From UHGV virus genome UHGV-0124803: 12,097 nucleotides of DNA. One strand, given 5' to 3'. Of the stretch, positions 3,630 through 12,097 are shown piece by piece. Source of the DNA: a virus. The notes under the pieces were generated by a model. That model did not search any database. It was not told where the DNA came from and saw nothing but the letters and a program-made list of their open reading frames with translations. A program made the position numbers and the translations under genes. The stretch's first letter is position 1, and every line of letters starts with the position of its first letter.

Positions 3630-3782
3630 TCAGCCCTCCCATATCTCGTTATCGTTGGCCACATCGCGAGCTTCTTTGCTGACGAAAGCCCACTTAATGC
3701 CTTCCTGTAAGGTGCGGAACTTCCAGCTCATGAATCCGCATGCAGTAACGCAGTACCAACCGTTGATGATTTTCCACTGCAT
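3630..3782 (-). CDS. Hypothetical small protein (50 aa, Trp/Cys-containing), first ORF after the PL-like promoter
   Basis: Not in the ORF track (under 60 aa). Read by hand: MQWKIINGWYCVTACGFMSWKFRTLQEGIKWAFVSKEARDVANDNEIWEG; RBS GAGGT about 7 nt upstream of the ATG at 3782; stop 2 nt before the next gene start. Confidence 0.3.
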   Translation of the reverse strand: MQWKIINGWYCVTACGFMSWKFRTLQEGIKWAFVSKEARDVANDNEIWEG

Positions 3783-3788
3783 AACTTG

Positions 3789-3793
3789 TTACC
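3789..3793. promoter_or_regulatory. Operator half-site (TTACC) over the RBS of the first leftward ORF
   Basis: Single pentamer matching the half-site of the palindromic operator; could equally be chance. Confidence 0.2.
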
Positions 3794-3801
3794 TCGGCCT
3801 G

Positions 3802-3816
3802 TTACCGCTGAGGTAA
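3802..3816. promoter_or_regulatory. Operator site OL-a (TTACCgctgaGGTAA)
   Basis: Perfect 15-bp palindrome TTACC-N5-GGTAA just downstream of the putative -10 of the leftward promoter. Confidence 0.6.
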
Positions 3817-3844
3817 TGATTATGCGTATTTGGTTTGGTGTCAA
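3817..3844 (-). promoter_or_regulatory. PL-like leftward early promoter (-35 TTGACA at 3844..3839; -10 uncertain, CATAAT or TAATCA at about 3824..3817)
   Basis: Consensus -35 hexamer on the minus strand flanked by two operator palindromes, upstream of the recombination operon; the -10 and its spacing are not clear-cut. Confidence 0.4.
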
Positions 3845-3863
3845 TAGATATGAGTTAAAAAAA

Positions 3864-3878
3864 TTACCCGTAAGGTAA
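3864..3878. promoter_or_regulatory. Operator site OL-b (TTACCcgtaaGGTAA)
   Basis: Perfect 15-bp palindrome, centre 62 bp from OL-a, upstream of the -35. Confidence 0.6.
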
Positions 3879-3888
3879 TCTATCTGGC

Positions 3889-3914
3889 AATAAAAAAGCC
3901 GCCATGAGGCGGCT
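3889..3914 (-). terminator. Rho-independent terminator after the repressor gene
   Basis: 7-bp GC-rich stem AGCCGCC/GGCGGCT with a 4-nt loop, followed on the minus strand by TTTTTTATT; about 20 nt downstream of the repressor stop. Confidence 0.6.
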
Positions 3915-3935
3915 TACTTACTGAAAACTATAGTT

Positions 3936-4520
3936 TTATTGTTTGCTTTTTTCGTTCTGGTTGATGACAAATTCAATGTAACTTTCGATCTTTGCTTTCT
4001 CGGTTTCGGGTAACAATGCGTAGCGTGAGCGGTCATAGTTGATAGTCGCAGGGTCGTGCGGGTGAATCAGTAGTTCATATCCGTGACGCCCGAATGCGGA
4101 TGCAACATTCTCCAGGGTGGAAATGGAAACGCTGACCTCATTGTTTAACAGGCGGCTGATTGTCACCTGGGCGACGCCGGATGCGCGGTGAAGTTTTCCC
4201 TGCGTTGAAAGGTCGCGGCTTTCGCTCATCCAGCGTTCCAGGTTGTGAGCCGCCAGCTGACCAATGTCGCTTGGGCCGACAGGCTGAAAACCTTCCTGAG
4301 AAAGCGAGCGATCGATATCAAGCCAGTTACGTGGTTTATTGGCGGCAGCTTCAATTTTTCGCGCAACCTGGTCGCCGATAACCTTCTTGCCAAGAGCCCA
4401 GCGGTTTACCAGATTTGCCTGAGTTCCAAGTTTTTCTGCCATCCGCGTCTGAACACCATTGAATTCACGGTCGATCAAGTCGTTGAGATTTTGCCTGCGG
4501 ACGTCCTGGATACTTTTCAT
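3936..4520 (-). CDS. Immunity repressor (CI-like function), tandem HTH, no S24 peptidase domain
   Basis: 194-aa ORF divergent from the cro-like gene; two HTH-like segments (around residues 22-45 and 115-145, the second XRE-like: GVAQVTISRLLNNE...SISTLENVASAFG); no Ala-Gly/Ser-Lys autocleavage module visible; flanked by operator palindromes on both sides. Confidence 0.7.
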   Translation of the reverse strand: MKSIQDVRRQNLNDLIDREFNGVQTRMAEKLGTQANLVNRWALGKKVIGDQVARKIEAAANKPRNWLDIDRSLSQEGFQPVGPSDIGQLAAHNLERWMSESRDLSTQGKLHRASGVAQVTISRLLNNEVSVSISTLENVASAFGRHGYELLIHPHDPATINYDRSRYALLPETEKAKIESYIEFVINQNEKSKQ

Positions 4521-4575
4521 TTTCTGGAAAATCGCCTCATATATGAATCAGTAGATGATTCAATTTAAAGCAATA

Positions 4576-4590
4576 TTACCCAACAGGTAA
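4576..4590. promoter_or_regulatory. Operator site OR-a (TTACCcaacaGGTAA)
   Basis: Perfect 15-bp palindrome in the divergent repressor/cro intergenic region. Confidence 0.6.
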
Positions 4591-4620
4591 ATGCACCCCA
4601 TAGGTAACTATCCTTGATTT

Positions 4621-4649
4621 TTGTTACCTTATGGGTGAATATTTATTAT
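4621..4649 (+). promoter_or_regulatory. PR-like rightward early promoter (-35 TTGTTA 4621-4626, 17-nt spacer, -10 TATTAT 4644-4649)
   Basis: Sigma70-like hexamers at 17-bp spacing, about 25 nt upstream of the cro-like ATG; operator OR-b lies in the spacer. Confidence 0.45.
4625..4639. promoter_or_regulatory. Operator site OR-b (TTACCttatgGGTgA, one mismatch)
   Basis: Near-perfect palindrome overlapping the PR-like -35 and spacer; centre 49 bp from OR-a; an extra GGTAA half-site at 4603-4607. Confidence 0.5.
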
Positions 4650-4674
4650 CTGAAATAAATATCAGGCAATAGCT

Positions 4675-4905
4675 ATGAGCGATAACGGACATTTCGATTT
4701 CAAAAAGCACTGGCTTGCACTTACTCCGGATGAGCGTGAAGCCTTCGCACAGGAAGCCGGAACGACGAGTCACTATATCCAGACTCACTTAACAGGTAAG
4801 CGCAAAATGCCAGGTAAGGTATTGATGAATGGGCTTTTTAAAGCCTGTAAAACAAGACAATGGCTGCGCTCAAAAGCAGAACTGGCATACTTCTTCTACT
4901 CATGA
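4675..4905 (+). CDS. Cro-like small DNA-binding regulator
   Basis: 76-aa ORF divergent from the repressor, first gene after the PR-like promoter; HTH-like segment (EREAFAQEAGTTSHYIQTHL). Confidence 0.6.
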   Translation: MSDNGHFDFKKHWLALTPDEREAFAQEAGTTSHYIQTHLTGKRKMPGKVLMNGLFKACKTRQWLRSKAELAYFFYS

Positions 4906-4927
4906 TATCCAGCCACAACCCTCTGTA

Positions 4928-4949
4928 GACCGCCATCCGGCGGTCTTTT
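4928..4949 (+). terminator. tR1-like intrinsic terminator after the cro-like gene
   Basis: 7-bp stem GACCGCC/GGCGGTC, loop ATCC, followed by TTTT; about 23 nt downstream of the cro-like stop. Confidence 0.5.
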
Positions 4950-4960
4950 CATATCTATTC

Positions 4961-4975
4961 GTACCTCAAAGGTAA
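4961..4975. promoter_or_regulatory. Degenerate operator-like site (gTACCtcaaaGGTAA)
   Basis: 14 of 15 positions match the palindrome; lies between the tR1-like terminator and the next gene. Confidence 0.3.
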
Positions 4976-5053
4976 TAAAAAACCAAATCTGGTTGATCAA
5001 ATTTTCCAATTGTGCAAAATAGCCAATATCAATAACAAAAAGGGGCGGAAAAA

Positions 5054-5266
5054 TTGAAGATAGTAACCAGAATGGAGGCCGCAAAAGCCGGGTTAAATCG
5101 CTATTTCACAGGAAAGCGGTGCCGTCACGGCCATCTCTCTGAAAGGTATGTTCTGAACGGAACATGTGTTGAATGTGCAATGAATAGCGCCAACCGCCAT
5201 CGTAATGAATTTGCTTGTGCACTAAAGAGTGCAAGAGGGGAAACCTATGGCAAGCAGCTGGATTAA
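5054..5266 (+). CDS. Small Cys/His-containing protein at the cII position (possible zinc-binding regulator); start TTG 5054 or ATG 5072
   Basis: ORF between the cro-like and O-like genes; pattern C-x-H-x-H ... C-x2-C (CRHGH ... CVEC); GGGG 8 nt upstream of the TTG; no resemblance to lambda CII recognised. Confidence 0.4.
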   Translation: MKIVTRMEAAKAGLNRYFTGKRCRHGHLSERYVLNGTCVECAMNSANRHRNEFACALKSARGETYGKQLD

Positions 5267-6077
5267 GGTTGAAGTTATCACTCCTGATAAACCTGAAATT
5301 TTTCAGATAGCAGAAATTCTGGGTATTGATCCAGATGCTGTTCTTGGAAAGCTGGTTCGTATATGGGCATGGGCTGACCAGCAAACAATAGACGGTAACG
5401 CTGGCAGCGTTACAAAAGGAGTACTTGATAGACTCGCTTTTATTACAGGATTTGCTGACGCCCTCATTAGCGTCGGATGGCTTGCTTATCATGACGGCAA
5501 ACTAATTCTTCCAAACTTTGAGCGACACAATGGAGAATCATCGAAAAAACGTGCACTTACGAATAGAAGAGTGGCAGAGCATCGAAAACGAGTAACGCAA
5601 AAAGTAACGCCAACAGCGTTACAAAAGGAGTTACCAGAGGAAGAGGAAGAGGAAGATATATATAAAACCCCACACATAGCACACGCGCGCGAGAGTGATC
5701 CGACCAGTGAAGCGAACGGTACGCCGTTGCAGGTGGCAGAACCTGCATTTCTGGATGGCCTGAGTGAACCTATTGGGAAATTTCCGATGATCGATGGCTG
5801 GCATCCATCGCCGGATTTTCGACGGCGTGCTGCGCTGTGGGGAACGGCCCTGCCGGAACCGGAATTTACACCTGCTGAACTTGCTGCATTCCGGGATTAC
5901 TGGATGGCTGAGGGCAAAGTGTTCACGCAGGTTCAGTGGGAACAAAAATTCGCCAGGCACGTAAATCATATCAGGGGAAAATCAAAAAACGTCGGGAAAA
6001 GCGATGAGCTTGACTGGAATAACACTGACTGGATAGAAGGGGTGTGGGATGAAATCAACTCCAGAACTTCTCAATGA
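5247..6077 (+). CDS. Replication initiator / replisome organiser (O-like function) with DnaT-like C-terminal domain
   Basis: ORF 5229..6077; ATG at 5247 has RBS AGAGGGGA; acidic linker (EEEEEED); the C-terminal W/F-rich segment resembles the DnaT-type domain; sits immediately upstream of and overlapping the P-like gene; contains the candidate origin repeats. Confidence 0.65.
   Translation: MASSWIKVEVITPDKPEIFQIAEILGIDPDAVLGKLVRIWAWADQQTIDGNAGSVTKGVLDRLAFITGFADALISVGWLAYHDGKLILPNFERHNGESSKKRALTNRRVAEHRKRVTQKVTPTALQKELPEEEEEEDIYKTPHIAHARESDPTSEANGTPLQVAEPAFLDGLSEPIGKFPMIDGWHPSPDFRRRAALWGTALPEPEFTPAELAAFRDYWMAEGKVFTQVQWEQKFARHVNHIRGKSKNVGKSDELDWNNTDWIEGVWDEINSRTSQ
5590..5668. repeat. Candidate replication origin: GTAACGC iterons plus GA-rich and AT-rich tract inside the O-like gene
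   Basis: GTAACGC at 5591-5597 and 5602-5608 (11-bp phasing), inverted GCGTTAC at 5615-5621; the 18-mer CAGCGTTACAAAAGGAGT recurs at about 5405 and about 5614 in different reading frames; followed by GAGGAAGAGGAAGAGGAAG and ATATATATAAAA. Confidence 0.4.
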
Positions 6078-6825
6078 GTACGATCGCTTACGTGAGCATG
6101 GTGTTGCTGTGCATGAAGAGCGGCGTGACAGCAATGGCAAAAAGGAGCAGGTCGCTAGAATTTTCAATGAACTATTTGTCCAGTTACAGGCTGCATTTCC
6201 TGCAAGCGTTTCGACCATAAGGGAGCAGAACAAACTTAATGAATTCCGTAAGCAATGGATGCTTGCGTTTCTGGAGAATGGGATCACTACAATGGAACAG
6301 GTTAACGCTGGTATGCGCCACGCCCGCGCCAGTGAATCTCCGTTCTGGCCGTCGCCAGGGCAATTTATCAAGTGGTGTAAAGACAGCAAGATGGTTCTTG
6401 GCGTCACCATTGACGATGTGATGGCGGAGTTTCACCGGTACAGCAAGGAAAAAAGTTTATATCCTGGTGGTCCCGAAAGATTCCCGTGGCGGCATCCGGT
6501 TATGTACTGGGTCGTATGTGATACCCGCCGTGCAATGTATCAGCGCCAGCTTAGCGAGATTGAGGTTGAGAAACATGCGCGCAGGCTGCTTGATGATTGG
6601 GCGAAAAAGGTGGCTTCCGGACAGCAGATACCCGATCCGGTGATCAGCATACAGGCAAAGCCAGAACCCATGAGTACGCCTCCGGACACAGGGAGAGACG
6701 TTTACCATCCACCAGGGCGAAGTTTCGGGTGTATGCCTAACGCCGCTACCCTGGGGGGAATAACACCGGCGCAGTGGCTGATGGAGGAATACAGGCGGGG
6801 AAAGGCGGCAGGATTTATCAAGTAA
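6049..6825 (+). CDS. Lambda P-family replication protein (helicase loader)
   Basis: 258-aa ORF; the segment FPASVSTIREQNKLNEFRKQWMLAFLENGITTMEQVNAGMRHAR...PFWPSPGQFIKWC closely matches lambda P as I recall it; overlaps the O-like gene by 29 nt. Confidence 0.85.
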   Translation: MKSTPELLNEYDRLREHGVAVHEERRDSNGKKEQVARIFNELFVQLQAAFPASVSTIREQNKLNEFRKQWMLAFLENGITTMEQVNAGMRHARASESPFWPSPGQFIKWCKDSKMVLGVTIDDVMAEFHRYSKEKSLYPGGPERFPWRHPVMYWVVCDTRRAMYQRQLSEIEVEKHARRLLDDWAKKVASGQQIPDPVISIQAKPEPMSTPPDTGRDVYHPPGRSFGCMPNAATLGGITPAQWLMEEYRRGKAAGFIK

Positions 6826-6830
6826 TACCA

Positions 6831-6850
6831 GCGCGATAGCGCATTTTTTT
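6831..6850 (+). terminator. Weak terminator-like element after the P-like gene (GCGC-gata-GCGC then ATTTTTTT)
   Basis: Only a 4-bp stem but a 7-T run immediately downstream of the P stop; low confidence. Confidence 0.3.
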
Positions 6851-6855
6851 ACGTC

Positions 6856-6883
6856 TTGACAATTACCTGTTAGGTAATAAAAT
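6856..6883 (+). promoter_or_regulatory. Third repressor-gated promoter (-35 TTGACA 6856-6861, 16-nt spacer, -10 TAAAAT 6878-6883)
   Basis: Consensus -35 and 5/6 -10 at good spacing; an operator palindrome fills the spacer and a second lies 62 bp downstream at the RBS of the first accessory gene. Confidence 0.5.
6863..6877. promoter_or_regulatory. Operator site O3-a (TTACCtgttaGGTAA)
   Basis: Perfect 15-bp palindrome exactly between the -35 and -10 of the third promoter. Confidence 0.6.
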
Positions 6884-6924
6884 ATTCTAAACTCTATTGA
6901 TTTCGTGTCTTATGTGGTTTTTAA

Positions 6925-6939
6925 TTACCTCTGGGGTAA
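6925..6939. promoter_or_regulatory. Operator site O3-b (TTACCtctggGGTAA)
   Basis: Perfect palindrome 62 bp (centre to centre) from O3-a, the same spacing as the OL pair; 4 nt upstream of the ATG at 6943. Confidence 0.6.
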
Positions 6940-6942
6940 ATC

Positions 6943-7287
6943 ATGAGAAAACAGATACAGGCTCTTGGTCGACTCAAAACAGGCCAGATGAACAAAACAG
7001 AATCTGCGTATTGCCAGCACCTTGAGCAGCGTAAACGTGCAGGGGAAATCGCCTGGTATCGATTCGAGGGTATCAAGCTGCGGTTAGCTGACAACACGTT
7101 CTATACGCCCGATTTTGCTGTGATGCTCGCCACCGGCGAGATGGAACTGCACGAAGTGAAAGGTTTCTGGACCGACGATGCCAGGGTGAAAACCAAAGTC
7201 GCCGCAGATCAGTATCCGTTCCGAATCATCGGGGTAACGGTTAAGCCAAAGAAAGCAGGTGGTGGCTGGAACATCGAAGAGTTCTGA
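6943..7287 (+). CDS. DUF1064-like putative PD-(D/E)xK nuclease
   Basis: 114-aa ORF; pattern KTESAYCQHLEQRKRAGEI...YTPDFAV...ELHEVKGFWT matches my recollection of the DUF1064 / restriction-endonuclease-like fold (D ... E-x-K). Confidence 0.5.
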   Translation: MRKQIQALGRLKTGQMNKTESAYCQHLEQRKRAGEIAWYRFEGIKLRLADNTFYTPDFAVMLATGEMELHEVKGFWTDDARVKTKVAADQYPFRIIGVTVKPKKAGGGWNIEEF

Positions 7288-7831: not shown

Positions 7832-8145
7832 CGATCACAAAACAACGTGTAGAAGAAATCATATCCCGCATTGAAATGTATGGGCATGGTGCAGGGTATA
7901 CCGCTGACGAGGTTTATGACCTGGCTGTACTGGCGCTGAATTTATCAAATATCGCAAACCTGAAGCGATACGAGCTTGATATGGATGGTTGTGACTCGTT
8001 CGGTCAGGATTGTGGAGCTGACATGACTGAAGATTCTGATGGCGATTATGTCCTGTTTGATGACGTGGTTAAGTTGTTTGAGTTTGATACAACCACTCAG
8101 AAGCCAGAAAGCCCAGCAAAGGAGGCAACCAGTGAGCGAAATTAA
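7828..8145 (+). CDS. Hypothetical acidic protein (105 aa); N-terminal module shared with the 9111 protein
   Basis: RBS AGGGAGG upstream; N-terminus MTITKQRVEEIISRIEMYG resembles MTTITKERLLTIKQWRETYG of the 9111..9941 product. Confidence 0.5.
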   Translation: MTITKQRVEEIISRIEMYGHGAGYTADEVYDLAVLALNLSNIANLKRYELDMDGCDSFGQDCGADMTEDSDGDYVLFDDVVKLFEFDTTTQKPESPAKEATSERN

Positions 8146-8818
8146 TTACCAGGCACTGCGTGAGGCGGCGGAACGTGCAATTCCGGCAATGGAACGCCTG
8201 TTAATGTTGCCAGTTGATGATGATTTGTTAAGTGAACAGGAACTTAAAGATTACGGTGTGGATATTGATGCGCTCAACGCCTTCAAATTTCTGACCGGAC
8301 CAGAAACCGTGCTGGCACTACTGGATGAACGGGAAAGGAACCAGCAATACATCAAACGCCGCGACCAGGAGAACGAGGATATTGCGCTTACGGTTGGGAG
8401 GCTGCGCGTTGAGCTGGAAGGCAAAGACAGCAAAATAGCCAATCTTACCGCCGAACGCGATGCTCTTCGTGAAGGTGAGATGGGCGACGCTAGGCATAGC
8501 AACACACGGGCCGCAGCTGATATCTACTTCCAACTGGTCGAGGAGTGCGAAATTCCTGCTGGCGGATCTCTGGTCGAGTACGTTGACGATATGCGCGAGA
8601 AGCTGGAAGCCGCAGAGAAGCGCATTGCAGAGTTAGAAAGTGGTTCTGAGGCACAAAAGTTAGTTGAAGCAATCATTGTTGCGATAGAAAACGAACAGGA
8701 AAGGCTTTTTGATGAAGATTACCTAATGGATTCGAAAGAATGCATTGACGTAATTCGTGAAGAAGTAAAGCGATGGAATGATTCCCGTGCCGCTGGCATT
8801 CGCATCAAAGGAGAGTGA
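8132..8818 (+). CDS. Ea22-like family protein (coiled-coil)
   Basis: GTG start at 8132 with RBS AAAGGAGG 6 nt upstream (the track ORF starts further upstream at 8039); segment LLDERERNQQYIKRRDQENEDIALTVGRLRVELE matches my recollection of prophage Ea22-like proteins. Longer than lambda Ea22, so a homologue rather than the lambda gene. Confidence 0.55.
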   Translation: MSEINYQALREAAERAIPAMERLLMLPVDDDLLSEQELKDYGVDIDALNAFKFLTGPETVLALLDERERNQQYIKRRDQENEDIALTVGRLRVELEGKDSKIANLTAERDALREGEMGDARHSNTRAAADIYFQLVEECEIPAGGSLVEYVDDMREKLEAAEKRIAELESGSEAQKLVEAIIVAIENEQERLFDEDYLMDSKECIDVIREEVKRWNDSRAAGIRIKGE

Positions 8819-8819
8819 T

Positions 8820-9107
8820 ATGGCAACTTTGCAGGAATTAATCGACCTGACGCCAGAACAGGAAAAAGCGTGGAATCGCCTTGTGAAGGCTGTAAAGGAT
8901 TTCAGGGCAGCCGGAGGAAAGTTTTATAGCGTCCTGGACACGCTGAGCGCATACAACGGCGAGCACGTTGCCAGCATTGATAACGATAAGGGCTACCACA
9001 CTGCAAGCGTCTATATGCCTAGCATTGATGCGCCAGGGCTAACCAGTTGGGCTGATGATTGGCACGGCATCACGCTGAAAGATGGCGTTGAAGTGGATGA
9101 GGACTAA
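8820..9107 (+). CDS. Hypothetical protein (95 aa)
   Basis: ATG at 8820 with RBS AAGGAGAG 5 nt upstream, immediately after the Ea22-like stop; no recognisable motif. Confidence 0.5.
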   Translation: MATLQELIDLTPEQEKAWNRLVKAVKDFRAAGGKFYSVLDTLSAYNGEHVASIDNDKGYHTASVYMPSIDAPGLTSWADDWHGITLKDGVEVDED

Positions 9108-9110
9108 CAC

Positions 9111-9941
9111 ATGACCACTATTACCAAAGAGCGACTACTGACAATCAAGCAGTGGCGCGAAACATACGGACCTGGTAGCAACGTTGTACTGCCAGCAGAA
9201 GAAGCGGAAGAGCTGGCACGGATTGCGCTGGCATCGCTGGAAGCAGAGCCTGTTCTGTATCAGTCCTGCACTCGCCCCACCTGGAATAGCGGTGTTCCGT
9301 GGACGGAATGGAAAGAACGTAGTCGTGAGGGCTACGAAGACGATTTGCGCTTTACAGACACGCCTGACCATGCCGGTTGGATAAACAAATGCCGAAAACT
9401 ATATACCACTCCGCCAGCGCCGGTAATACAGGCTGATGTCGCGCAAGCAATTGAAAATCTCAAGCAGAAGTTAGTGGAATGCAATCGCTATAACTACTGC
9501 GCAGATGCAGTTAAAGGCGTAGAGGATGCCTGCCGTGCTGTTAGCTATAGCCAAGCCGACAATCAACCAGCATCTGGCAACCAGGCTGCCGAATCCAATC
9601 GCAGTAATGAGTGGACCGGCAATCCTGATATTGATAACGCCATCATCATGCTCGACCGCATAGATACGCTGGAAAATTGCGATGATGACCGTATTGAGGC
9701 GGTTAAGGCTGTTTTGCGTAGACTGGCTGGCAACTATCCGGTAACTCCGGATGGTTGGATAAGCTGTAGTGAGCGAATGCCGGATAAGTTAATTCCGGTA
9801 ATGGTCATGTATGAAGACGGTGAGATGTGGTCTGCAATGTGGAATGGCAATCGCTGGGATGATGGCACCGAATATCCGGATCCGCACTCAGTTACGCACT
9901 GGCGTGAAATGCCAGCAGCACCGCAGCAGGAGGTGAAGTGA
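9111..9941 (+). CDS. DUF551 domain protein
   Basis: 276-aa ORF; C-terminal GWISCSERMPDKLIPVMV ... VTHWREMPAAP matches the DUF551 pattern as I recall it; RBS GAGGA upstream. Confidence 0.55.
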   Translation: MTTITKERLLTIKQWRETYGPGSNVVLPAEEAEELARIALASLEAEPVLYQSCTRPTWNSGVPWTEWKERSREGYEDDLRFTDTPDHAGWINKCRKLYTTPPAPVIQADVAQAIENLKQKLVECNRYNYCADAVKGVEDACRAVSYSQADNQPASGNQAAESNRSNEWTGNPDIDNAIIMLDRIDTLENCDDDRIEAVKAVLRRLAGNYPVTPDGWISCSERMPDKLIPVMVMYEDGEMWSAMWNGNRWDDGTEYPDPHSVTHWREMPAAPQQEVK

Positions 9942-10162
9942 TGGACTCCTTCGCGAAATATACGATTATTGACTGGATAGCCTTCCTTCAGGTTTTGCTC
10001 ATCTGGTTTTATATGGCTTACAGGAGTGGACAGTGGATTGTCAGTGTAGCCTGTAGCAAGGGATGGCGTTGGTGGAACCGAAAGAATAAAAAGCGCTGGC
10101 CTTGGATTCGTTTTACGAAGCATTCAATCTTAACAGTCTTCAGCCTGGTTCTGTCGTTGTAG
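9941..10162 (+). CDS. Small hydrophobic (probable membrane) protein, 73 aa
   Basis: ATG overlaps the upstream stop (TGATG); hydrophobic N-terminal helix (IIDWIAFLQVLLIWFYMAY), basic W/R/K-rich middle, hydrophobic C-terminus. Confidence 0.35.
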   Translation: MDSFAKYTIIDWIAFLQVLLIWFYMAYRSGQWIVSVACSKGWRWWNRKNKKRWPWIRFTKHSILTVFSLVLSL

Positions 10163-10216
10163 TCACCACTCAAAGCGGCATGACGATACAAATTCACAAG
10201 CCAAAGGAGGAAGGTC

Positions 10217-10501
10217 GTGGCTAACCTGCAACTTGCCGTTAAAGGTGAATACTTCGATGCCATGATTCGCGGAGAGAAAACGGAAGAGTATCGCCTGTGT
10301 AATGACTACTGGAATAAGCGAATTATGTTCCGCGAGTATGACCGCCTGATTATCACAAAGGGATATCCGAAGCGCGACGATTCCAGCCGCAGAATTGACG
10401 TCCCGTATGACGGATATGAAATCAAGACAATCACACATCCCCACTTCGGTGATAAACCGGTAAAGGTGTTCGCGATAAAGGTGAATATCGGCAATGAATA
10501 A
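10217..10501 (+). CDS. ASCH/PUA-like domain protein (DUF3850-like), 94 aa
   Basis: GTG start with strong RBS AAAGGAGG 6 nt upstream; pattern LQLAVKGEYFDAMIRGEKTEEYRLCND resembles ASCH/DUF3850 proteins as I recall them. Confidence 0.5.
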   Translation: MANLQLAVKGEYFDAMIRGEKTEEYRLCNDYWNKRIMFREYDRLIITKGYPKRDDSSRRIDVPYDGYEIKTITHPHFGDKPVKVFAIKVNIGNE

Positions 10502-10573
10502 CAATCCTCGCACTCGCGGGGATTTCTTTTATCTGAACTCGCTACGGCGAGTTTTGTTTTATGGAGATGATAA

Positions 10574-10741
10574 ATGCACTTCCGAGTCACAGGTGAATGG
10601 AATGGAGAACCATTCAACAGAGTTATCGAAGCAGAGAACATCAATGACTGCTATGACCACTGGATGCTGTGGGCGCAGATAGCACATGCAGACGTAACCA
10701 ATATTCGAATTGAAGAACTGAAAGAACACCAAGCCGCCTGA
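10574..10741 (+). CDS. 55-codon small ORF upstream of xis (resembles my recollection of a lambda orf-55)
   Basis: Hand-read ORF MHFRVTGEWNGEPFNRVIEAENINDCYDHWMLWAQIAHADVTNIRIEELKEHQAA with RBS GGAG 7 nt upstream; the stop is embedded in a terminator hairpin; not in the ORF track. Confidence 0.4.
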   Translation: MHFRVTGEWNGEPFNRVIEAENINDCYDHWMLWAQIAHADVTNIRIEELKEHQAA

Positions 10742-10753
10742 TGGCGGTTTTTT
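10733..10753 (+). terminator. Intrinsic terminator hairpin immediately upstream of xis
   Basis: Stem GCCGCC/GGCGG(T), loop TGAT, followed by TTTTTT. Confidence 0.5.
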
Positions 10754-10754
10754 C

Positions 10755-10768
10755 TTGCGTGTAATTGC
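10755..10768 (+). promoter_or_regulatory. pI-type CII-activated promoter box (TTGC-N6-TTGC: TTGCgtgtaaTTGC)
   Basis: Tetrad repeat with 6-bp spacing placed so that transcription would start inside xis; this is the lambda pI arrangement as I know it. Confidence 0.5.
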
Positions 10769-10780
10769 GGAGACTTTGCG

Positions 10781-10999
10781 ATGTACTTGACACTTCAGGA
10801 GTGGAACGCACGCCAGCGACGCCCAAGAAGCCTTGAAACAGTTCGTCGATGGGTACGCGAGTGCAGGATATTCCCTCCTCCGGTTAAGGATGGAAGAGAG
10901 TATCTGTTCCACGAATCAGCGGTAAAGGTTGACTTAAATCGACCAGTAACAGGTAGCCTTTTGAAGAGGATCAGAAATGGGAAGAAGGCGAAGTCATGA
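10781..10999 (+). CDS. xis: Excisionase Xis (lambda-type)
   Basis: 72-aa product MYLTLQEWNARQRRPRSLETVRRWVRECRIFPPPVKDGREYLFHESAVKVDLNRPVTGSLLKRIRNGKKAKS, which I recognise as lambda Xis; 23-nt overlap with int as in lambda. Confidence 0.95.
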   Translation: MYLTLQEWNARQRRPRSLETVRRWVRECRIFPPPVKDGREYLFHESAVKVDLNRPVTGSLLKRIRNGKKAKS

Positions 11000-12047
11000 G
11001 CGCCGGGATTTACCCCCTAACCTTTATATAAGAAACAATGGATATTACTGCTACAGGGACCCAAGGACGGGTAAAGAGTTTGGATTAGGCCGAGACAGGC
11101 GAATCGCAATCACTGAAGCTATACAGGCCAACATTGAGTTATTTTCAGGACACAAACACAAGCCTCTGACAGCGAGAATCAACAGTGATAATTCTGTTAC
11201 GTTACATTCATGGCTTGATCGCTACGAAAAAATCCTCGCCAGCAGAGGAATCAAGCAGAAGACTCTCATAAATTACATGAGCAAAATTAAAGCAATAAGG
11301 AGGGGTCTGCCTGATGCTCCACTTGAAGACATCACCACAAAAGAAATTGCGGCAATGCTCAATGGATACATAGACGAGGGCAAGGCTGCGTCAGCCAAGT
11401 TAATCAGATCAACACTGAGCGATGCATTCCGAGAGGCAATAGCTGAAGGCCATATAACAACAAACCCGGTCGCTGCCACTCGCGCAGCAAAATCAGAGGT
11501 AAGGAGATCAAGACTTACGGCTGACGAATACCTGAAAATTTATCAAGCAGCAGAATCATCACCATATTGGCTAAGACTTGCAATGGAACTGGCTGTTGTT
11601 ACCGGGCAACGAGTTGGTGATTTATGCGAAATGAAGTGGTCTGATATCGTAGATGGATATCTTTATGTCGAGCAAAGCAAAACAGGCGTAAAAATTGCCA
11701 TCCCAACAGCATTGCATGTTGATGCTCTCGGGATATCAATGAAGGAAACACTTGATAAATGCAAAGAGATTCTTGGCGGAGAAACCATAATTGCATCTAC
11801 TCGTCGTGAACCGCTTTCATCCGGCACAGTATCAAGGTATTTTATGCGCGCACGAAAAGCATCAGGTCTTTCCTTCGAAGGGGATCCGCCAACCTTTCAC
11901 GAGTTGCGCAGTTTGTCTGCAAGACTCTATGAGAAGCAGATAAGCGATAAGTTTGCTCAACATCTTCTCGGGCATAAGTCGGACACCATGGCATCACAGT
12001 ATCGTGATGACAGAGGCAGGGAGTGGGACAAAATTGAAATCAAATAA
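10977..12047 (+). CDS. int: Tyrosine integrase Int (lambda-type)
   Basis: 356-aa product starting MGRRRSHERRDLPPNLYIRNNGYYCYRDPRTGKEFGLGRDRR, essentially lambda Int as I recall it; catalytic-region motifs HELRSLSARL and LGH...SQYRDD...W present. Confidence 0.97.
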   Translation: MGRRRSHERRDLPPNLYIRNNGYYCYRDPRTGKEFGLGRDRRIAITEAIQANIELFSGHKHKPLTARINSDNSVTLHSWLDRYEKILASRGIKQKTLINYMSKIKAIRRGLPDAPLEDITTKEIAAMLNGYIDEGKAASAKLIRSTLSDAFREAIAEGHITTNPVAATRAAKSEVRRSRLTADEYLKIYQAAESSPYWLRLAMELAVVTGQRVGDLCEMKWSDIVDGYLYVEQSKTGVKIAIPTALHVDALGISMKETLDKCKEILGGETIIASTRREPLSSGTVSRYFMRARKASGLSFEGDPPTFHELRSLSARLYEKQISDKFAQHLLGHKSDTMASQYRDDRGREWDKIEIK

Positions 12048-12097
12048 TGATTTTATTTTGACTGATAGTGACCTGTTCGTTGCAACAAATTGATAAG
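12044..12097. other. attP P' arm: Int arm-type sites (P'3, P'2, P'1) and IHF H' site; window ends before the core
   Basis: Window sequence is the reverse complement of the lambda P' arm as I recall it: arm-type sites at 12044-12053, 12055-12064, 12065-12074 (rc AGGTCACTAT and relatives) and an IHF-like TATCAATTTGTTG on the minus strand at about 12084-12096. Confidence 0.8.

Follow-up and report, generated by a model that had tools for sequence, protein, structure and literature searches.

The stretch of viral DNA analysed here, 12,097 nucleotides of the genome UHGV-0124803 (this whole stretch is called the window throughout), carries the 15-bp palindrome TTACC-N5-GGTAA repeatedly between its early genes, which raises the question of what protein reads these sites and how much of the phage it controls. 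We propose that the palindromes are operators of the prophage's own repressor, Rep, encoded at 3936-4520 and related to the repressors of phages epsilon15 and SPC32H, a prediction to which we give a probability of roughly 80%. The sites exist, are under selection and accompany Rep, and in four early regions they flank or overlap promoter-like elements that are conserved. The locus is a further example of a known switch and a modest extension of known biology, revealing no new kind of system. The extension consists of four regulated regions, a common 62-bp module, and strict half-sites with free spacers, all found with a phiV10-type Rep whose operators had not been annotated.

Occurrence and conservation of the palindromes

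Exact search finds five perfect TTACCNNNNNGGTAA sites, named OL1, OL2, OR1, O-P3a and O-P3b in Table 1. They stand at the five positions listed in a preliminary description of this DNA, whose title had nevertheless spoken of six. That description held the repetition to be beyond chance, and 200 dinucleotide shuffles of the window bear this out, with a mean of 0.01 sites and not one shuffle reaching five. Two further sites depart from the palindrome by a single mismatch, O-P2 (GTACC..GGTAA), whose position had been given correctly, and OR3 (TTACC..GGTGA), which had been placed at 4625-4639 and actually lies at 4624-4638; OR2 (GCACC..GGTAA) has two mismatches. Other two-mismatch matches, at 4785, 5486 and 6746, were discarded as intragenic and at chance level (2.9 expected). 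A lone TTACC at 3789-3793 was likewise rejected as an operator half, since what stands there on the coding strand, 9 nt ahead of the ATG at 3782, is GAGGTAAC, for which a ribosome-binding site is the simpler reading.

All eight sites fall within four intergenic gaps (3783-3935, 4521-4674, 4906-5053 and 6826-6942) that sum to about 570 of the 12,097 bases, less than 5% of the window. The earlier view that the sites are intergenic and at putative promoters thus stands, with the correction that there are four such regions and not three: the leftward promoter region (PL), the region between rep and the gene in the position of cro (OR, which includes the rightward promoter PR), the region upstream of the replication genes (P2) and the region downstream of the lambda-P-like gene (P3). 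The identical spacing of the PL and P3 pairs reported earlier is exact, 62 bp from 3802 to 3864 and again from 6863 to 6925.

The pattern of change in close relatives suggests what holds these sites in place. Our variant set, 71 distinct IMG/VR relatives in which the N-terminal domain of Rep is 100% identical, is useful for micro-variation, and the seven-site layout recurs in it. The P3 pair is 62 bp apart in 68/68 variants, over a distance from the start of rep to P3a that ranges from 2337 to 2411 bp. Across the same 68 variants, the ten half-site columns of P3a show no change, four of its five spacer columns change in 24-31, and the flanks vary; P3b, OL2, OR2 and O-P2 follow the same pattern of fixed half-sites and free spacers, and the half-sites of OL1 are unchanged in five phages and about 70 variants. 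Fixed half-sites around free spacers therefore point to sequence-specific protein contacts on either side of a spacer that is not contacted.

Beyond this set, we scanned six reference phages (phiV10, TL-2011b, epsilon15, SPC32H, Tyrion and a Klebsiella phage), and the motif and its placement recur in phages of Escherichia, Salmonella, Klebsiella and Enterobacter. All six have a cluster of sites between rep and the cro-position gene and a 62-bp pair after the replication genes, and the PL pair is 62 bp apart in the reference phages (63 bp in the Klebsiella phage), with a third PL site 76 bp further on in epsilon15 and SPC32H. The conserved placement that the preliminary description had anticipated in related prophages is found there, together with the palindrome and the 62-bp spacing. 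Aligned with each other across five phages, the PL and P3 cassettes need no gaps, and their only invariant blocks are the four half-sites and a CTATTGA midway between them; PL and P3 are therefore copies of one module, in which an operator is followed after about 20 bp by a -35 and this, 17 bp on, by a -10 that abuts the downstream operator. In PL, the -35 falls in the invariant CTATTGA between OL1 and OL2. At P2, the -35 and the AAAAT of the -10 are unchanged in the six phages, and a lone TTACC abuts the -10-like element in epsilon15, SPC32H and the Klebsiella phage, which suggests that the P2 region is a decayed third copy of the same module. In the alignment of OR the three sites keep a fixed register, at distances of 17 and about 31 bp, with an invariant TTGATT between OR2 and OR3; since this hexamer sits there, OR3 is assigned to the spacer and -10 region of PR, whose -10 would be one of the two options given in Table 1.

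Two promoters can be read at P3. We rejected the near-consensus one at 6856-6883 as the main conserved promoter, given that its -35 hexamer varies among the 68 relatives and the internal TTGATT-17-TTTAAT is invariant. The hexamer TTGACA at 6856-6861 is particular to the window, the relatives having TCGATA, TCAATA, TTGATA or other variants, and it has the look of a promoter-up variant specific to the lineage. Together with its spacer, P3b's right half (GGGGTAA in the window, GAGGTAA in phiV10 and epsilon15) also serves as a ribosome-binding site, standing 5 nt ahead of the ATG at 6943.

The sites have in part been seen before. In the epsilon15 record (AY150271.2), features labelled 'protein_bind, repressor, lysogeny' coincide with ATTACC-N5-GGTAAT: three lie downstream of the repressor gene at PL, one after the replication gene, and further ones precede the small terminase gene and gene 3 or lie between the Ant-like and tailspike genes. 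The OR sites and the second P3 site are unannotated in that record, and the GenBank records of phiV10 and TL-2011b have no operator features at all. A search of the literature on Uetakevirus or SPC32H operators, which did not extend to the original epsilon15 and SPC32H reports, found no operator mapping. The motif also stands before the terminase, head, tailspike and lysis units in the complete genomes of phiV10, epsilon15 and SPC32H, a placement suggesting that Rep probably silences most of the phage genome directly. The preliminary description had supposed that one repressor gates more than the usual pair of leftward and rightward operator regions; the four regions in the window and the late units in complete phage genomes support this and suggest that it was an understatement.

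Rep and its type of immunity

The product of 3936-4520, taken as the prophage repressor in the preliminary description, is confirmed in that role by homology. Rep gives a full-length phmmer match to the SPC32H Rep structure (PDB 5D50, residues 1-190 against 2-197, E 3.5e-42) and also matches the SPC32H C-terminal fragment (5D4Z). Its identity is 99.5% with phiV10 gp40 and with ZX5 ORF21, 78% with the protein of Enterobacter phage Tyrion and 43-45% with the Klebsiella-phage, epsilon15 and SPC32H proteins. Overexpression of ZX5 ORF21 represses lytic genes, in a study that did not locate the operators (PMC9782041). Rep has an N-terminal helix-turn-helix (HTH) domain for DNA binding (about 1-72), an HTH_3-like domain in the middle (about 89-150) and, at the C-terminus, a tetramerisation domain. 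One secondary source on SPC32H Rep describes an N-terminal domain that binds DNA, a middle domain that dimerises and a C-terminal domain that tetramerises and binds the antirepressor (PMC9986798); according to another, the protein is tetrameric on palindromic DNA, its DNA-binding pairs form across dimers, and the antirepressor Ant disrupts the tetramer (bioRxiv 10.1101/2021.09.07.459249).

An alignment of Uetakevirus Reps has 69 invariant columns, and the putative recognition helix, (Q/A)NLVNRW, is unchanged among proteins that are 43% identical overall, in agreement with the invariant half-site and in support of Rep as the binder. Outside this group, Pseudomonas phages have repressors in which only the N-terminal domain is homologous to Rep and the C-terminus is unrelated (at least those of PseuP_224 and Turba are CI-like), and palindromes surround their repressor genes: TTACC-N4-GGTAA in PseuP_224 (three perfect copies), TAACC-N4-GGTAA in JBD68 and TAACC-N5-GGTTA in Turba. 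In Acinetobacter, a homologue that is more divergent and differs in the helix is accompanied by another repeat. As only the N-terminal domain is common to the Pseudomonas phages and Rep, the half-site is, in this small sample, tied to this domain and not to the rest of the phage.

Database labels do not follow these domains closely. The significant Pfam HTH_3 match of Rep lies in the middle domain, and the domain at the N-terminus that binds DNA gives a sub-threshold YdaS-like match; because the middle domain is of the dimerisation type, labels such as 'two HTH motifs', 'TreR-like' and 'VapI antidote' are misleading. The PseuP_224 locus (L015 3922-3975 and 4797-4837) combines a CI-type repressor having an S24-like C-terminus with a Rep-like N-terminus, and has the half-site of the window with a spacer one base shorter.

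Assigning the immunity group by homology, as the preliminary description had envisaged, leads to epsilon15 and SPC32H. With epsilon15 (AY150271.2, repressor gp38), the window has in common the identical core ATTACC-N5-GGTAAT at homologous positions, the 62-bp pairs, the gene order and, in complete relatives, the sites at late units. Unlike the window, epsilon15 has the third PL site, a perfect palindrome in place of the degenerate GCACC of OR2 (the aligned position reads TTACC..GGTAA in SPC32H and the Klebsiella phage too) and more AT-rich spacers, and the two repressors are 43% identical. With SPC32H, likeness extends over the full length of Rep, its three domains, the lack of an autocleavage domain and the operator layout, whereas the Rep proteins are again 43% identical and Ant with its LexA box lies outside the window.

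The comparison with lambda CI gives a more divided picture. As in lambda, the repressor and cro-position genes diverge, three operators lie between them and more at the leftward promoter, and the operators are palindromic and overlap core promoters. However, a Pfam scan of Rep finds HTH_3 alone, at 106-147, and no Peptidase_S24, and the C-terminus aligns with the SPC32H tetramerisation domain; the window has extra operator-bearing promoters for the replication genes and the downstream early genes; and its operator pairs stand 62 bp apart and flank the promoter, in contrast to the adjacent operators of lambda. A search of eight small early proteins in Pfam and PHROGs found no homologue of an N-type antiterminator. 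The window thus has three features of the epsilon15/SPC32H type, namely the repressor architecture without S24, the operator palindrome, and the gene order and operator placement with 62-bp pairs, and it lacks two lambdoid ones, the S24 autocleavage domain and control limited to OL and OR with N antitermination. Judged by these comparisons, the immunity system is of the epsilon15/SPC32H (Uetakevirus) type and not lambdoid. The preliminary description was right to set it apart from the classical lambdoid immunity types; its remark that the operator was unrecognised does not hold, given the annotation in epsilon15.

A looser parallel is the stoperator system of mycobacteriophage L5, in which gp71 recognises asymmetric 13-mers that are orientation-dependent, often lie inside transcription units and act on elongation. 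Both systems would have one repressor and many sites over the whole phage genome, silencing early and late units, but the sites in the window are symmetric and at promoters, and the proteins are unrelated.

Proposed repression scheme and competing explanations

Given this homology, we propose a scheme in which pairs of Rep N-terminal domains would bind each palindrome, the two TTACC half-sites of a 15-bp site being one helical turn apart, which suits a pair of HTH domains. Each transcription unit would have its own promoter and operators: PL with OL1 and OL2, the P3 unit with P3a and P3b, PR and the rep promoter sharing OR1, OR2 and OR3, and the replication-gene promoter with one weak site. 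OL1, OR3 and P3b, and in the window P3a too, would occlude RNA polymerase; at the downstream operator of a module, Rep would do so because the operator abuts the -10 and covers the transcription start. OL2 and P3a are the upstream operators; they stand at about -60, six helical turns from the downstream ones and on the same DNA face, and may bind Rep cooperatively with these through one or two tetramers, and OR1 with OR2 may serve to autoregulate rep. A terminator comes after each of rep, the cro-position gene and the P-like gene; with these terminators and no homologue of an N-type antiterminator among the eight small early proteins searched, each unit would need a repressible promoter of its own. 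Induction would proceed through a LexA-controlled antirepressor, Ant, encoded outside the window, and not through cleavage of the repressor. In phiV10, p24 is such an Ant, 88% identical to that of SPC32H and with a consensus LexA box, CTGTATAAATACACAG, directly upstream.

A bolder possibility, which we regard as doubtful though worth stating, is that the 62-bp operator-promoter-operator unit is a portable promoter clamp worked by one tetramer, and that the genus is locked into one operator specificity. A single tetramer would hold both palindromes on one face of the DNA and so enclose the -35 and -10; the unit would occur twice intact in a genome (PL and P3) and once decayed (P2), next to single or tandem operators before late units. 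The lock would arise because at least 14 sites per genome would have to change together. If true, this predicts cross-immunity between phiV10-type and epsilon15-type phages; we know of no description of such a promoter clamp or of immunity shared by phiV10 and epsilon15. The Ant at L007 20543-20840 in phiV10 has kept its 88% identity to the SPC32H protein alongside target repressors that are only 43% identical.

Several points weigh against Rep as the reader of these sites or against parts of the scheme. The cro-position protein may share the operators of Rep and could bind the same sites. Recognition helix and half-site are both fixed within Uetakevirus, so that the group offers no covariation between them, and the comparison of half-site and domain outside it covers four loci (phage records found by tblastn). 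The repressor-site features of epsilon15 are themselves sequence-based annotations. Promoter assignments are consensus matches, and as the scan of the PL and P3 regions finds 6 where 4.6 are expected after shuffling, which is not significant, the promoter calls rest on conservation. That a single Rep tetramer bridges 62 bp is suggested by geometry. Finally, neither an Ant homologue nor a LexA box is present in the window, and its right arm is of different origin, so that a phiV10-type Ant may not belong to the mosaic element.

The explanation that competes best, though we consider it unlikely, is that the palindrome serves chiefly to bind the cro-position protein (4675-4905), or a PerC-, AlpA- or gp55-like regulator, and that Rep binds elsewhere. 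The 76-aa cro-position protein matches phrog_35, 'transcriptional repressor', and is the first gene product of the rightward operon; Cro and CI have operators in common in lambdoid phages, and as both proteins always co-occur with the sites, our computations do not separate them. Yet the Pseudomonas phages, whose genomes are otherwise unrelated and have only the N-terminal domain of Rep in common with the window, carry TTACC or TAACC palindromes around the repressor gene, and the epsilon15 annotators gave these sites to the repressor; use by Cro would add to the model with Rep and not replace it.

It is far less plausible that the palindromes act as RNA hairpins, in transcript processing or in masking ribosome-binding sites. 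OL1 and P3b do lie in predicted 5' leaders, the gene at 6943 has a ribosome-binding site that overlaps P3b's right arm, and the hairpins fold at -3.5 to -6.5 kcal/mol. However, the half-sites are invariant with no compensatory changes, GCACC..GGTAA and TTACC..GGTGA break the pairing uncompensated, OL2, OR1, OR2 and O-P2 each flank a promoter-like site on its upstream side, and the stems are short and weak. Equally implausible, in our judgement, is that the cassettes are chiefly recombination joints between exchangeable modules and that their regulatory look is secondary. They do stand at module boundaries, they are constant where the rep-to-P3a length varies, and the window is mosaic, but joints do not explain invariant arms and -35 elements with variable spacers, nor the fixed 62-bp phase, and the operator model itself leads one to expect, as a by-product, that modules are exchanged at conserved regulatory sites.

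We find it hardly credible that the motif is that of a DNA-binding protein of the host and lacks phage specificity: the sites are AT-rich, intergenic and near promoter-like hexamers, as is typical of host factors, but about 217 kb of the E. coli EC69 chromosome outside its phiV10-like prophage has no perfect site, against five in 3.1 kb of the window, and the motif travels with the phage across four host genera. The equal frequency in host DNA that, according to the preliminary description, would have spoken for a host factor is therefore not seen. The same part of the EC69 chromosome has ten or eleven one-mismatch sites, scattered at about 0.05 per kb, and the EC69 prophage shows the usual set; we know of no E. 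coli regulator with a TTACC-N5-GGTAA consensus.

Rep as the reader of the palindromes accordingly stays our preferred explanation, and its value lies mainly in the map. Pathogenic E. coli, O157 and O103 lysogens included, commonly carry prophages of the phiV10 type, and for these prophages the map is fuller than before, indicating that Rep probably acts directly in silencing every early transcription unit. Footprinting, phiV10-based reporter phages and the study of paired sites under a tetrameric repressor controlled by an antirepressor all gain precise targets from it.

Genomic setting and further observations

Table 1. Genes, predicted operators, promoter-like sites and terminators of the early control region, with positions in the window.
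Feature	Position	Strand	Basis or remark
First gene of leftward early operon, 50 aa, phrog_898	3630..3782	-	Open reading frame, PHROG match, synteny with phiV10 p39 and epsilon15 gp37
OL1, perfect operator TTACCGCTGAGGTAA	3802..3816	.	Abuts PL -10, overlaps predicted transcription start
PL promoter-like site TTGACA-17-AATCAT, 10/12	3816..3844	-	Consensus match and conservation
OL2, perfect operator TTACCCGTAAGGTAA	3864..3878	.	62 bp from OL1, about -60 relative to PL
Intrinsic terminator of rep	3896..3915	-	Predicted; annotated in phiV10
rep, 194-aa repressor	3936..4520	-	PDB 5D50/5D4Z matches, Pfam, alignment
OR1, perfect operator TTACCCAACAGGTAA, rep-proximal	4576..4590	.	Identical in 69/71 variants
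OR2, weak operator GCACCCCATAGGTAA	4593..4607	.	17 bp from OR1
PR promoter region	4614..4649	+	Invariant -35 TTGATT (4614-4619) with -10 GAATAT (4637-4642), or TTGTTA-17-TATTAT (4621-4649)
OR3, operator TTACCTTATGGGTGA	4624..4638	.	Within PR spacer/-10 region
Cro-position gene, 76 aa, phrog_35 'transcriptional repressor'	4675..4905	+	PHROG E 5.6e-13; position relative to rep
Intrinsic terminator after cro-position gene	4927..4946	+	Predicted; annotated in phiV10
O-P2, weak operator GTACCTCAAAGGTAA	4961..4975	.	Upstream of replication-gene promoter; conserved core nnACC-N5-GGTAAT
P2 promoter-like site TTGATC-16-CAAAAT, 8/12	4993..5020	+	Read from sequence and alignment; below scan threshold
Replication operon: 70-aa gene (phrog_1081), DnaT-like 5229-6077, lambda-P-like 6049-6825	5054..6825	+	Pfam/PHROG
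Near-consensus promoter TTGACA-16-TAAAAT, 11/12	6856..6883	+	P3a exactly fills the 16-bp spacer
O-P3a, perfect operator TTACCTGTTAGGTAA	6863..6877	.	Homologous epsilon15 site annotated as repressor-binding
Internal P3 promoter-like site TTGATT-17-TTTAAT	6897..6925	+	PL register; columns invariant in 68 variants
O-P3b, perfect operator TTACCTCTGGGGTAA	6925..6939	.	62 bp from P3a
First gene of third rightward unit, DUF1064	6943..7287	+	Pfam/PHROG; resolvase-like in PHROGs

The features in Table 1 belong to a Uetakevirus-type early region that occupies the window from position 1 to about 8000. This part shows 97-98% identity to phiV10, TL-2011b, ZX5 and HEMP4, which are phages of Escherichia, and about 80% to epsilon15 of Salmonella; all five are Uetakevirus or close relatives, and the gene order in this part agrees with theirs. 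The leftward operon comprises a small gene, a recE-like exonuclease, RecT, a PerC-like regulator and a methylase; rep is a leftward gene of its own with its own terminator; and the rightward 76-aa gene is followed by a terminator, a small gene with the DnaT-like and lambda-P-like replication genes, a weak terminator, the DUF1064 gene and further early genes. The right arm, 8115-12097, matches the int/xis arm of lambdoid phage HK106 and vB_EcoP-720R6, and not any Uetakevirus; it contains the integrase gene (10977-12047) with an excisionase-like gene upstream. No phage record or complete E. coli genome among those searched spans at least 80% of the window, and the source element is therefore a mosaic, or the window covers the junction of neighbouring elements.

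Two kinds of site elsewhere in the relatives deserve mention. Two tandem sites stand directly before the small terminase gene, at 87-101 and 105-119 of locus L007 (phiV10), 11503-11535 of L001 (TL-2011b), and 12-26 and 30-44 of L008 (epsilon15). They fall inside the annotated terminase coding sequence in phiV10 and the EC69 prophage; the epsilon15 gene is annotated as starting after them, which suggests that the start has been called too early in the phiV10 and EC69 records. In every Uetakevirus checked, the attP region contains a conserved near-site, TTACC-N5-GGTAT, placed immediately upstream of the integrase gene (L007 26870-26884, L008 26882-26896, L009 26960-26974, L001 48-62 and L010 17548-17562); it could be a weak operator for int or an unrelated integrase arm site.

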